64,000 bases of DNA from Saccostrea echinata (taxonomy: Eukaryota). Under the pieces are notes generated by a model. It saw nothing but the letters and a program-made list of their open reading frames with translations. It did not search any database and had not been told where the DNA came from. Positions 385 through 63,909 of this stretch are shown piece by piece. Position 1 is the first letter of the stretch. Every line of letters begins with the position of its first letter. A program made the position numbers and the translations under genes. The stretch is taken from positions 23,746,001 through 23,810,000 of the forward strand of contig NW_026889751.1 of NCBI RefSeq assembly GCF_033153115.1, written 5' to 3'.

Positions 385-3300
385 CTTAAACTTTCCCGGC
401 CAAAGTTCCCTTGCCAGCATACAGAAGGGTTCAGGATTTTCCTGAAAAAAAAAATGGCTCTCAGTTATTATAAATTTGAAATAGAGCTGTGTAGCATAAA
501 AAGGTCAATAAGGTGATTACAATAAAAAAAAAAACCAGTTAGGTTCGAAAACATACTAGATAATAAGAAATTATAAAGCTTACCTAAACAAAGGTTATTT
601 ATTGTAGCTTTTATAGTCTTTTACTTTATAGTGATTAAGCTCTGATTTGAACTCAGTTTTGTTCATTCATATTTCAATCAAAGTCCAAATTTCTCTTCAT
701 ATATTTTTTTTAAATTTTATTCTGCAGTGGAGACTAGTGAAACTAAAACAGCAACATCATAGAAAAAATACTTGATATAAACATATCTGTTAATCTATAT
801 GTAGCAAATTACATGCATGATATAATAAAATTACAAGACGTATAAGTGACTCCTATGAATTAAACAATCACTGGCAAACGTTTTCATACCGGGTCATTAC
901 AATTACACTATATGATAATCATGCACAGTAACTTGAATTGTTTACACTCAGATGTTATATTGTTTTTCGTGAGGAATATTTACTTCTGTGCCTTAAACAT
1001 ATTCTTAAATTAAGCCAATTTTACAAGATTGTCTTCCAATGGAAATGAAAATCTTATCAATAGTTGGAGGAATCAATTTTTATGATGAAATATGGAGATA
1101 ACGAACAGCATTAAAGCTCAAAGCCCATTAAGACAATAAAAATCGCGAACAGAGCAAACACGGACCTCCAAAAACATCAGAGGTGGGATCAGGTGCCATG
1201 GAGAAGTGAACTTATTTTATACAGAGACTATACAAACATTATGTCTCAAAAATAAAGGCAATAGTAATTCCAAAGGAAATAAAAGTAAAATAATAACATT
1301 CGAGAATAAAACTTCCCCATTGTTTTCTTTATAGACTGGAACCAAATTCCCATGACTCTAGTAATACAACAAGATAAAGGTCATCACCTTGAAGTACTCC
1401 AGATAAAATATAGCCTGGGGACACGGCAGGTTGTATTTCTCTAAGTTATGGTAGAGTCCAGTTTCTGGGGATCGGAAGTCTGGTATACCAGCCGCTAAAA
1501 ATTATAAATAGTTCTGTTATACTTTTAAGCTTTAGTTAATTAAAGATTGAAACTTAAGCAAAATGACTTCCATGCTTGAGGGGGAAATATAGAAAATTAT
1601 ACAGAAGACGAATTAAATCTGTCATCTCAATTTACAAAATAGTTATGATATGGATGCAACGGCGTACAAAAAAAGTTACTTTCACATTTTAATTTCAACA
1701 AATATTTCTAAAAACTTCACCAACCTCTCTATTTACAATTTAACTTTTATTTTAGAAGAACATATGCACAAATATATAATTGTTACTCCTTACATATAGA
1801 GGTCTCAGCTCCGACCATTGTTATATTAATGTTTTTTTTTAATCCTTGATGAACATTTTAATCTTAACAAACATTAAAGCTTCACCATTCATTCTATTTA
1901 CATTGTACAATTTTTTAATTGTAATTTTATTTTAGATAATGTGCACATTTAAATTGCTGTTAATTCTTACATGTCGAGATTCCAGCCCCTGCCATTGTTA
2001 CGATATTACTGGCTTTTTTGTCTTTGATAAACTGAACAATTCCTTCTAGGTCCACAGAGGATAACACTTGCTCAGGTGGCTCCTTCGTCTTCATGTACTT
2101 CATCAAATCCTCTAAGCCCATATCAGCTAAAACAAATTACAACTGACTGATGCATGTGCATGTATGCAGCCTAAAAATCGTTATAAGTTCTATAGTTTTA
2201 GGGACAAGCAATGAATAAGCTAAGAGATATACAAAGGATGAGAAAGTTTGATGGACAGAAAGTACATACAGTGTACGTCGATAGACGCACAGAGGATTGA
2301 AAAAATTGATGCACAGGCAAGAGACAAGCCAATACACTGTAGACTAACAGATAGAAACAAGTCCATACCCTGTAGATGGACAGATAGAGACAAGTCAATA
2401 CACTGTAGACTGACAGATAGAAACAAGTCCATACCCTGTAGACGGACAGATAGAGACAAGTCAATACACTGTAGACTGACAGATAGAAACAAGTCCATAC
2501 CCTGTAGACGGACAGATAGAGGCAATTCAATACACTGCAGACTGACAGATAGAGACAAGTCCATACACTGTAGACTGACAGATAGAGACAAGCCAATACA
2601 CTGTAGACTAACAGATAGAAACAAGTCCATACCCTGTAGACGGACAGATAGAGACAAGTCAATACACTGTAGACTGACAGATAGAGACAAGCCAAAACAC
2701 TGTAGACTGACAGATAGAGACAAGTCCATACACTGTAGACTGACAGATAGAGACAAGCCAATACACTGCAGACTGACAGATAGAGGACTATAACGTTTGA
2801 AAGACAGACTATAGACAAACAAGTAAATAGACAGTTTGTTAGTTAGTTTGTTTGTTATTTAACGTCCCTCTCGAGAATATTTCACTCATTTGGAGACGCC
2901 ACCGCTTGCCGGTGGAGGGCTGCAAATTTATACCTTTATTCGGCACTCAGGGCCATTGAGCAATGAGGGATCTTTTTCGTGCCAACACCTACTGCGACAC
3001 GGGACCTTGGTTTATACGGTCTCATCCGAAGGACCGGTCTTTACATGTACGTCCCTCAGTGGATTCGAAAACGCGACCTAAGGTCCTTACTCCGCGACTC
3101 TAGAGCAAACGCTCTAACCACTGCGCCACGCGGGCGACGACCGTTTGCTAGGCAAGAAATTGTGTAAATACAAACCAATTATAGATAGAGATCGATATGG
3201 AGAACAAGAAAGTCTGATGGAAAGACGATGGACAACAAGCAAAAAGATGTATAGATAGAGCACAGACAGTTTGATGGACAAACAGTTGACAAGCCAATAG

Positions 3301-3941
3301 ACAGACAGATGGAGAAACGACAACTTAATTAACTGGCAAAAGAAAAGTCAAATAATAGTAAGTACAGGATCTTTGCTTTGAATAACACTTTTACGAATAT
3401 TTGAAGACTTAGATGTTGAATTAACAATCATTTCATTCAATGGTGTCTTGTTAAAACTCACCTGGGTGCACCCTTTCCTTCTGTTTATCCTAAAAAAATA
3501 AAGAGGTATATAACAAAATTTATTCATCTAACAAATATTTAATAAAAATTGATGTATTTATATATTTCAATCCAAATAACTGTTATTTAGTCAAAGTACT
3601 AAACATCAATCACTATACCTGCTCTTTTGTTTCATCTGGACTTTTCTCATCTGTTGACCAAAAAAATGTCTAAATAATTATACAGTTCTATATCTCTATA
3701 CTGGATTCTTTGAGAAAAAAGAAAATCCCATGTTATCTAATGTTACATTGCATGGTAAAAAAATTTATAAACTAAGCTGTGTTTTTATCTTAAATTGTCT
3801 ATGATAATTTTTTTTTATTCACAGAAAATTAACTTCTTATATTACATATAACCTCTCTTTCTATTCATTGTAATGAGTTTTATAGTACCTCTTCACAGTC
3901 ACCCTAAGAGAGGGTAATCGATACAAACCTTTTTCTGCCAT
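385..3941 (-). CDS. SIRT2: NAD-dependent deacetylase sirtuin-2-like, 5' part (gene continues beyond window start)
   Basis: GT-AG exons 3929-3941, 3619-3650, 3462-3489, 1971-2126, 1388-1494, 385-441 splice in frame to [131 protein letters not shown]. Contains the class I sirtuin motif [15 protein letters not shown] and SIRT2-like GLYxNLxKYx[14 protein letters not shown]. The three short N-terminal exons are less certain than the core. Confidence 0.92.
1083..1210 (-). mobile_element. 3'-end fragment of Penelope-like retroelement family
   Basis: Reverse complement matches 33400-33515 (ggcacctgatcccacctctg ... gttcgttatct). Confidence 0.7.
2320..2787. repeat. 33-bp minisatellite, ~14 copies, in SIRT2 intron
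   Basis: Unit gacaagtcaatacactgtagactgacagataga; explains the periodic 11-aa ORFs on both strands. Confidence 0.95.
2843..3138 (-). mobile_element. tRNA-derived SINE (head type A)
   Basis: Minus-strand A-box-like tggcgcagtgg and B-box-like ttcgaatcc; core shared with copies at 13170, 13725, 24700, 54278; simple-repeat tail; degenerate 13-bp TSD gacagtttgttag/gaccgtttgctag. Confidence 0.9.
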
Positions 3942-4308
3942 GTTTCTCCAAAATCTACAATTAGATGCAGATTTGTATGAGATAAGTGATTGGGTTTTTT
4001 TTTCAAATTAATTTCTAATAATGGTTAAAATTAAGCTTTTTTGCCTCTGGTCCTTCTATTCCTATCCGATAGATTTACTAATTTGAATATTAGCCACGCT
4101 TTCTTTTGTAAAGAAAACCAATAAAGATAGCAAAGAAAATGCACAAAGCTCACGTGAGAAGTGGTGTGTAGGTTGGCAATACTTATACCTTCAAAATGAT
4201 CAGCTCTTTCTCTAAAGTGTAACTCTCTGTTCAGCGGGTAGTATGGTGTGTGTTTAAATAGAAACTATTGCAGTATGTAAGTTTGTATAGCTGCATAGTG
4301 AGTTTTGA

Positions 4309-62479: not shown

Positions 62480-62635
62480 ACAAACAAGGGAACCACAAAG
62501 TGGGGGATTCCCTCCGCAAGCACTTCGATCCTGATGTAAATTATTACTTCCATTATCCACAAACTCACTCACTCACTTATACACACTCACACAGGCATTA
62601 CCATATCCCCTCCAACTAAACTGGGAGGGGATAAT
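62480..62635 (-). mobile_element. Short HINE-like remnant
   Basis: (cact)n tract and terminal hairpin atcccctcc..ggaggggat. Confidence 0.4.
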
Positions 62636-63909
62636 ACAAAGGTAAAGTGGATGCAACCAAATACATAAAACCTTGCCATGGAAAAGCAAGGGATCTTCTA
62701 CATTAGCCCCAGTTTATTACATTTTGTAATTTTATGCATCCCTTAAATGGATAGTCCCTACAAGCATGACAAGTAATTGGCTTGTATATAATTGGAATTC
62801 TCAGTACTGCAGATTATGAGATTTGAACCTATAACTTTCAGATGTAATCCTAACCAAACACAAACTGTACTAATTTGACACTTAAAGTACTGTCACCATG
62901 TCTTTCATCATTAATGAACCTGCCTGCAAATGTAAACAGGTACTTTAAATTCTAATTCATCATATTTGTGAGCGAATAGCTATTTTTGAACTTTTCTAAA
63001 GAGCATTCTATCATACTTAATATCAAACTTTTTCTTTTGAACCTGCATGAACAAGAACTCCTTAGCAGAATTTTAAAATCTTGCCATCCATTCCTATATG
63101 CATGGCAACCTGAGCTGATTGGTCGAATTATTAGGAAGTTAACACTTGTTAAAAACATGTACAAATTACCACTGTCATTCTAAAAATAATGCAAAAATGA
63201 AGATTGTCATAATGCATGTTCTTTTTTCAAATTCATCTTTCCATGTTCGCATGTTTCTGAAAAGTTCCCCTTAGAATATATGTGCGTACATGATAATACA
63301 TGTACATTTTAAATGTTCTTGCATGGTCTCCACTAGTTTTCTTTTCCATATTGTACATGTATAATGTAACTCCCTTGGATGTGAAAGATTTTACAAATAA
63401 TTTTGAAAAATGTGACTGCTGTGGTATAAATTAAAAATTTCTATAGCTTTTAACCACACCATTTTACTGTGGATTCACAGGTGCATTTACATTTATATTA
63501 GCAATCAAGAAAAAAGAATTCTGAGATAAAAGTCTATTCAGATTTCCCATCATAACCCTAAGTGAGATAATCTAAAGCAAGTATTGTCACTCAATATAAT
63601 GTTGTCAGCAAGCCAGATGACCCCTGTGTTAGTCAGAGAGAAAGAGAGAGAGAATTGTATGAATATAGATAGCTTTACAAGTGGCAGCTGCTGTATTTAA
63701 TAAACCGTCTTGTATTTTACATTAAAAGCAATCATGTTCGGAGTGCAAAGAGAGTGGTGTCTTGGAAATAGATTGAGTTGGAATAAGAAAGTGCTCCCTG
63801 TATACAAATGATCTAAGGGTATACACCAATAAATAATATACTGAAAGCTGGATGTGAGCATCAAATTATATATTTGCAATAATATATGTCTTGAACTAAG
63901 ACAACTCAC

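Follow-up and report, generated by a model that had tools for sequence, protein, structure and literature searches.

The closest described counterpart of the sequence analysed here is the excision footprint left by Tc1, a transposon found in Caenorhabditis elegans. According to the available text of PMC4490562, Tc1 breaks carry non-complementary two-base 3' overhangs. Supplementary Data 3 of that paper lists the octamer TACATGTA as class L among germline Tc1 revertants, in an assay that detects in-frame products only, and it was obtained in 24 of 103 wild-type, 10 of 36 lig-4 and 3 of 39 polq-1 revertants. Precise restoration was seen in 25 of the 103 wild-type revertants, and TATATGTA and TACATATA (classes O and M) contributed four each. 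These counts suggest that the worm makes the TACATGTA product without needing classical end joining and, for the most part, through polymerase theta. The same octamer was analysed here in a 64-kb stretch of the oyster Saccostrea echinata (assembly GCF_033153115.1, contig NW_026889751.1, positions 23,746,001 to 23,810,000; hereafter the window). A first-pass annotation, made from the sequence alone, had read its many copies as excision scars of a cut-and-paste transposon. The oyster octamer agrees with the worm footprint, a major stereotyped germline product, in all eight letters and in the six-base gain (+6), presumably at a TA, and the naming of TA-CA-TG-TA as a Tc1-type footprint is thus backed by the documented revertants.

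Other features set the oyster apart from the described systems. In the worm (PMC4490562, PMC3520976, as far as their text is available), the octamer is one of 26 products and was termed a rare footprint, whereas in the oyster it occurs as a single product at about 0.8 per kb. Somatic Tc1 excision typically leaves four bases (+4; 78%, available text of PMC13148408), and Sleeping Beauty leaves five (+5), cag or ctg (PMC5224488, text available in part). Across Sleeping Beauty and ZB, the footprints are cag/ctg or 0–3 bases in the accessible parts of PMC8934666, PMC5224488 and PMC7913693, in contrast to CATG in the oyster. No report of genome-scale accumulation of the TACATGTA footprint in molluscs could be found in the literature searched, whose coverage left out most subscription journals, and the available portions of PMC4284660, PMC12373286, PMC2872659 and 10.1101/656579 held nothing on this footprint. 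The footprint itself is textbook knowledge; its accumulation to about one per kb as one uniform product was not found in print.

Enrichment of the octamer

A total of 53 exact TACATGTA copies were distributed over positions 3042..63361, corresponding to 0.83 per kb. The chance expectation was derived from 100 dinucleotide shuffles of the window, which yielded a mean of 1.86 and a maximum of 5 copies. Overall, the octamer was about twenty times as frequent as expected by chance. The first-pass estimate of about 50 octamers against 2–3 expected was therefore close, and all nine positions named there carried the motif. Among window 8-mers other than microsatellites, TACATGTA ranked top in enrichment, and no other word of the form TA-NNNN-TA was strongly enriched (z 28.9; runner-up 4.0). 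End variants with one mismatch were far rarer, confining the enrichment to the TA-bounded 8-mer. The +4 form TACATA (87 vs 85) and the +5 form TACAGTA (14 vs 13.5) remained at background.

Markov models of orders 2–6 fitted to the window itself expected 6.0, 9.0, 21, 57 and 95 copies against a both-strand count of 106; the high-order values are circular because these models were built from the motif itself. When the motif was collapsed to give a motif-free background, orders 2–5 expected 2.4–3.7 copies against 53. The excess thus stayed under the higher-order models that had been proposed as a possible way of removing it. An apparent enrichment of TACACTGTA (9 vs 1) was rejected, as eight copies had the same orientation and two were left after removal of a 33-base tandem array. 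The word TACATGCATGTA was found twice (29889 and 61168), and these two words provide 4 of the 15 TGCATGTA/TACATGCA counts (3.5 expected). The overlapping pair of octamers TACATGTACATGTA may represent a second event at the TA of an existing scar or a six-base slippage duplication.

Six-base gains relative to sibling repeat copies

Ancestral states were taken from paralogous repeat copies, not alleles, and six bases were removed from each octamer copy before realignment. Within the window, 47 of the 53 octamers had no alignable sibling and the one at 35290 was left unscored because of a weak alignment (69% identity). Among the remaining five, a net +6 gain could be observed at four (3042, 12270, 36955 and 38156). 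The tally of repeat-copy indels proposed in the first-pass annotation therefore returned insertions at four of five scoreable sites, with no gain at 12445. That annotation had described 3042, 36955 and 38156 as exact CATGTA gains at a TA; the +6 was borne out at all three, the TA state only in part. At 3042, the siblings are copies of the short interspersed nuclear element (SINE) at approximately 13186–13485 and 24699–24958; the collapsed copy reads TTA and both informative siblings CCA. All five siblings of 38156 carry TG, and the six siblings of 36955 read TA, TG, CA, AA, CA and TA (TA 2, CA 2, TG 1, AA 1). The gain at 12270 was an addition to the earlier cases. TA was present there in both siblings, one extra base lay nearby, and the site is held in a local triplication (about 11560–11900, 12150–12476 and 18020–18376). 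A four-base CATG-type gain could also be seen in a SINE copy at about 13228.

Together with three contig cases described below, seven gains could be compared with paralogous siblings, which were all or mostly TA at four, mixed at one, CA at one and TG at one. The CA siblings at 3042 and the TG siblings at 38156 mean that an earlier substitution to TA is needed in the octamer-bearing copy if a TA was the target. By our own estimate, an AT-rich copy that has diverged by 15% owes about one quarter of its TA sites to new mutation, so two non-TA cases among seven gains are unremarkable. Insertion at non-TA sites, reported at about 1.4% for Sleeping Beauty and ZB (PMC5801840), fails to explain these siblings because the non-TA pair is then duplicated. 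The CA and TG states remain compatible with a process able to act at CA or TG as well. Hypermutation beside the scars was not observed, with mismatches within five bases at 12 of 81 against a background of 107 of 761.

Occurrence in metagenome contigs

A metagenome scan using the SINE core gave 94 loci, which were split by guanine and cytosine (GC) content; their hosts are eukaryote-like by composition and SINE content only, and species are mixed. In the 80 loci with GC below 50% (161.6 kb), 56 octamers were counted where 5.5 were expected, and the 14 GC-rich loci contained none. Without four redundant or tandem loci, 50 octamers were counted against 4.8–7.6 expected. Octamer density across similarity clusters was 0.45, 0.37, 0.29 and 0.05 per kb, and in this mixed-species set the third of contigs poorest in CpG had the lowest density (0.09 vs 0.47 and 0.50 per kb). 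Gains of six bases at a sibling-shared TA could be identified at L056:442 (core CATG), L067:1067 (core TATG, the Tc1 minor class TATATGTA) and L056:1166 (core CCGG). One +7 gain was present in L029 at about 1554, and the remaining clean six-base indels were unrelated in sequence. One octamer was common to two 90%-identical contigs (L002/L071). The satellite and SINE patterns had no match in viral contigs, the first metagenome scan or prokaryote genomes, and when viral contigs were scanned for double octamers, the 120 loci obtained included none that was scar-rich (at most two extra copies per locus).

Other TA-palindrome-TA words were also enriched in the contigs, namely TAGATCTA (12 vs 1.9), TACCGGTA (5 vs 1.2) and TACTAGTA (5 vs 1.5), which is what families with other ends would predict. 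The roughly 6-fold enrichment of TAGATCTA came from L025, L033, L034, L039, L060 and L086, where some copies may be located within local repeats. At L034:875-888 and L039:630-643 it overlaps TACATGTA, as if a scar of another type had been added inside an existing one.

Target-site preference

Each octamer was treated as a former TA by collapsing it, and the flanks were compared with those of other TA sites. In the window, 53 of the 106 half-sites carried A at −3, compared with 35% at other TA sites (p 0.002), and T was depleted at −1 (p 9e-6). The pattern ANN-TA-NNT was present at 15 of 53 collapsed sites against 12.7% (p 0.003) and, independently, at 14 of 50 contig sites against 11.5% (p 0.001). 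The half-site biases remained after nested CATG contexts were dropped. The collapsed flanks of both window and contigs therefore fit the Tc1/mariner target preference. The Tc1 target consensus is CAYA, with C at −4. Scoring of the window against this consensus, as generally known, gave a permutation p of 0.002; C at −4 was seen in the window (p 0.03) and was not replicated in the contigs. According to the available text of PMC8934666, Sleeping Beauty has ANNTANNT as its majority target motif, and the oyster sites share this bias with Sleeping Beauty and ZB (PMC8934666, PMC5224488 and PMC7913693, each in the parts available). A direct repeat of at least three bases flanked none of the 53 sites, and therefore no longer target duplication is involved. 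The footprint of an element with such a duplication (e.g. hAT) was rejected on this basis, together with the net gain of six.

Search for a donor element

The first-pass annotation had suggested looking for an abundant TA-flanked element with CA..TG ends. In 64 kb, one ambiguous candidate and no transposase remnant could be found. The ends of this candidate (7361..10568) are ambiguous, and it may be a TTAA-target element, because its arms continue through TTAAGTA. TTAA-flanked inverted-repeat elements were observed at 12766-13125, 53571-53897 and 7357-10572, and we take them to be Kolobok-like. Looser matches were similar to those obtained from resampled sequence. The transposase search covered stop-free frames of at least 45 residues and returned only unrelated Pfam matches below threshold. 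A clearer CA-ended, TA-flanked miniature inverted-repeat transposable element (MITE) was present in a contig (L001:2272-2549); its left flank reads CACATG-TA, as if it had been inserted in an older scar. A 420-base MITE with TACATG..CATGTA ends (L031:773-1192) was rejected as donor, since it is flanked by a near-perfect 6-base repeat that points to another class, presumably IS3EU-like.

Tc1/mariner families are present in Crassostrea gigas (10.1101/656579, available portion). In the window, the mariner-like element at 37042..38016 splits the satellite array at a TA, which is duplicated, and itself contains an octamer at 37435; this shows that TA-targeting elements act in this DNA. A 5-kb element at 56753-61751, whose CCCTAATG ends are perfect over 19 bases and whose subterminal repeats are rich in GGAATTCC, is possibly a further TA-duplicating element with CC ends. 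At 57728-58819, an inverted-repeat element with CAGG..CCTG ends is bordered on either side by TTCAA, which may be a target duplication of 5 bases.

Interpretation and alternative explanations

The octamers are best read, with a probability of about 0.72, as accumulated germline excision footprints of CA..TG-ended, TA-targeting elements of the Tc1/mariner superfamily. The octamer excess, the +6 gains at four of the five window sites that could be scored and the bias of the flanks towards ANN-TA-NNT were observed directly. By analogy with Tc1, an element would insert at a TA and duplicate it, and on excision its transposase would cut two bases inside each end, so that the left flank keeps CA and the right flank TG. 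End joining that keeps both would yield TA-CA-TG-TA, plausibly via polymerase theta, as the worm counts suggest; the carry-over of this route to oysters would rest on that analogy. Where siblings carry CA or TG, the copy would have mutated to TA before the insertion. Kilobase-sized insertions would be purged or would transpose elsewhere, six-base scars in non-coding DNA would meanwhile become fixed by drift, and scars would outnumber elements for this reason. The documented Tc1 product, the +6 gains and the target bias all favour the footprint interpretation of the first-pass annotation, whereas an ancestral TA at every site, a need for very heavy cycling and the presence of an abundant element were not supported.

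Several observations weigh against the footprint interpretation. The jumping gene was not found, with one ambiguous CA-ended candidate for 53 scars in the window, and no transposase family was detected in 84 of 90 open frames from six inverted-repeat elements (Pfam). The TA-flanked elements of the window end in CG or CC, and the scars predicted for them are rare (TACGCGTA 0, TACCGGTA 1). The oyster lacks an excess of +4 and +5 forms, unlike the somatic norm of Tc1 and unlike Sleeping Beauty; the outcome is thus less varied than that of known systems. Scoring was possible at only 5 of the 53 sites, the sibling state is non-TA at two of the four window gains and mixed at a third, and 12445, without a net length gain against its closest sibling, is an ambiguous case or a counter-case. 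The gain at L056:442 is also a perfect 6-base tandem duplication. Finally, palindromic 8-mers with outer AT, GA, GG or TG were enriched 1.4–2.0 against 1.5 for the non-CATG TA class, and the argument from other families is weakened because these palindromes are about equally enriched.

The missing donor, the single dominant product and the CA (3042) and TG (38156) siblings would also be expected if, with no resident transposon, a stereotyped break-and-repair process wrote CATGTA/TACATG wherever a pyrimidine-purine step is flexible (mostly TA, at times CA or TG), for example through an abortive transposase-derived host nuclease or templated insertion by a repair polymerase. Enrichment in three similarity clusters of unrelated contigs (0.29–0.45 per kb) points the same way. 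Such a writer is nevertheless unlikely: its product would have to equal the known Tc1 footprint letter for letter and its flank bias the Tc1/mariner target motif, the two non-TA cases among seven fit the estimated share of new TA sites, and no such machine is described in the literature consulted. Where purines and pyrimidines alternate, slippage or template switching, for example by TACATG duplication or TACA fold-back, could build the palindrome as well and would account for the nested forms. Purine-pyrimidine alternation is indeed longer around the motif than at other TA sites (3.7 vs 2.2 bases; 0 of 5000 resamples), the L056:442 gain is of the duplication type, TACATGCATGTA occurs twice, the gain near 13228 is four bases long, and other palindromes are mildly enriched. 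Against this, the siblings at 3042, 12270, 36955 and 38156 have no adjacent CATGTA template, CATG within 30 bases of the motifs is at background (15 vs 15.2), as are inverted flanks, and fold-back predicts flank-dependent palindromes rather than one word at 18-fold, making this origin quite improbable.

It was also considered that the octamer could be a protein-binding site of Irx/TALE- or MYB-like type, or else belong to the highly iterated palindromes, in either case made by substitution and kept by selection. The identical octamer is highly abundant in Phytophthora promoters (motif-1/AM-20), where the accessible text of PMC3520976 cites it as Irx-preferred and that of PMC11134190 reports its binding by PsMyb37; in the available parts of these two sources it is treated as a promoter element, a footprint origin having been considered and then dismissed. 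One-mismatch relatives per perfect copy fall below the substitution-only steady state in the window (0.54–0.64 vs about 1.1), 12445 gained no length, and L002/L071 share one motif. The oyster copies, unlike the Phytophthora elements, are insertions in repeats and introns: the scoreable cases are private to single copies within satellites and SINEs. Promoter clustering was absent, with 32 copies within the bodies of the two mapped genes and 21 outside (p 0.10), and the contig decay ratio (0.79–1.08) is near neutral. As selection also leaves the origin of the sites unexplained, this possibility is judged very improbable. Decay of TACGCGTA, which two deaminations turn into TACATGTA, has in its favour that some parts of the window are poor in CpG (observed/expected 0.27–0.87). 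Its chance is practically negligible, given that it is unable to add six bases, that the equally expected products are rare (TACACATA 1, TATGCATA 4) and the precursor absent, and that octamer density does not follow the CpG ratio (rho 0.18, p 0.5, 16 bins).

Excision is the unseen half of cut-and-paste transposition, since an element that has left its site is missed by repeat annotation. If the octamers are footprints, an 8-mer count with its one-mismatch decay would provide a datable record of excision and germline repair in any invertebrate genome, and a 6-base peak is predicted in oyster indel spectra. A +6 gain is in-frame and could add two residues to a protein, although the exons mapped here contained none. 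Where promoter scans return TACATGTA as an abundant 'motif', it may likewise be a mutational product.

Accumulation rate and spacing

About 0.8 excess copies per kb, each open to 8 loss substitutions, correspond to a gain of approximately 0.006 scars per base, in units of the substitution rate. At steady state, 0.8 perfect scars per kb would therefore need about one new scar per 150 substitutions, and the very heavy insertion-excision cycling that had been supposed would not be required. Repeats of about 14% divergence were predicted to carry about one scar per kb, and 4–5 were seen in about 3.3 kb of alignable repeats. The one-mismatch ratios of window and contigs, set against the equilibrium, fit a continuing or fairly recent process.

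Seven neighbouring pairs were 170–194 bases apart (6693/6865, 12270/12445, 15300/15492, 26867/27039, 31639/31809, 48080/48264 and 52397/52591), and one was 354 apart (58640/58994). In the 165–200 band 1.5 pairs were expected (p 0.0006, with the band picked post hoc); the best 25-base bin gave p 0.015, and jittered positions gave p 0.002. None of 17 contig pair distances fell within this band, and the spacing is for that reason a lead only. Tc1/mariner elements prefer nucleosome linkers, according to the available parts of PMC8934666, PMC5224488 and PMC7913693, and the 170–194-base spacing possibly reflects such linkers. It is conceivable, though unlikely, that six-base TA insertion, at about one per 150 substitutions, is a standing germline signature common to oysters and other marine invertebrates, placed in nucleosome linkers and recording chromatin phasing (170–194 bases), maybe with an element-free writer.

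Genes and mapped features

The features mapped in the window are collected in Table 1. The satellite array presumably resembles the oyster Cg170 satellite.

Table 1. Coordinates of octamers, repeats, elements and genes in the window.
Feature	Position	Strand	Basis or remark
Dispersed TACATGTA set, n=53	3042..63361	.	Exact match, shuffles, Markov
Octamer within tRNA-derived SINE copy (2847-3138), net +6	3042..3049	.	Sibling alignment
CA-ended, TA-flanked inverted-repeat element, 3.2 kb, sole clear one in window	7361..10568	.	
Octamer, CATGTA gained at TA	12270..12277	.	Alignment with two sibling copies
Octamer in same triplicated repeat as 12270	12445..12452	.	Sibling alignment
Mitochondrial amidoxime-reducing component, 7 coding exons	19382..28267	-	10 octamers in introns
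Satellite array, 156-165-bp units, two blocks (36463-37041, 38016-38651)	36463..38651	+	Source of ancestral states
Octamer in 165-bp satellite unit, +6	36955..36962	.	Alignment with six siblings
Non-coding mariner-like element, 975 bp, 29-bp perfect terminal inverted repeats starting CG	37042..38016	.	
Octamer in satellite unit, net +6	38156..38163	.	Sibling alignment
Inositol-trisphosphate 3-kinase B-like, last 7 coding exons	41667..47394	-	
Two overlapping octamers (TACATGTACATGTA)	43028..43041	.	Exact match
TA-flanked MITE, 179 bp, CC ends	52216..52394	.	Octamer at 52397 directly after

The two gene bodies carried 1.0 octamers per kb, the rest of the window 0.64. The 1,975 mapped coding bases contained no octamer, which is weak evidence alone because only about 1.6 were expected. 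Earlier exons of the inositol-trisphosphate 3-kinase B-like gene were not found in the window. Its exon at 41667-41912 showed 100% identity to the Saccostrea echinata inositol-trisphosphate 3-kinase B-like protein. The last 49 residues of a Saccostrea cucullata TRIM71-like protein are 98% identical to the last kinase exon (41667-41813), and this entry is probably a chimeric gene model. At 17318-17454, 2 kb downstream of the amidoxime-reducing component gene, the last exons of this gene recur as a degenerate duplicate.

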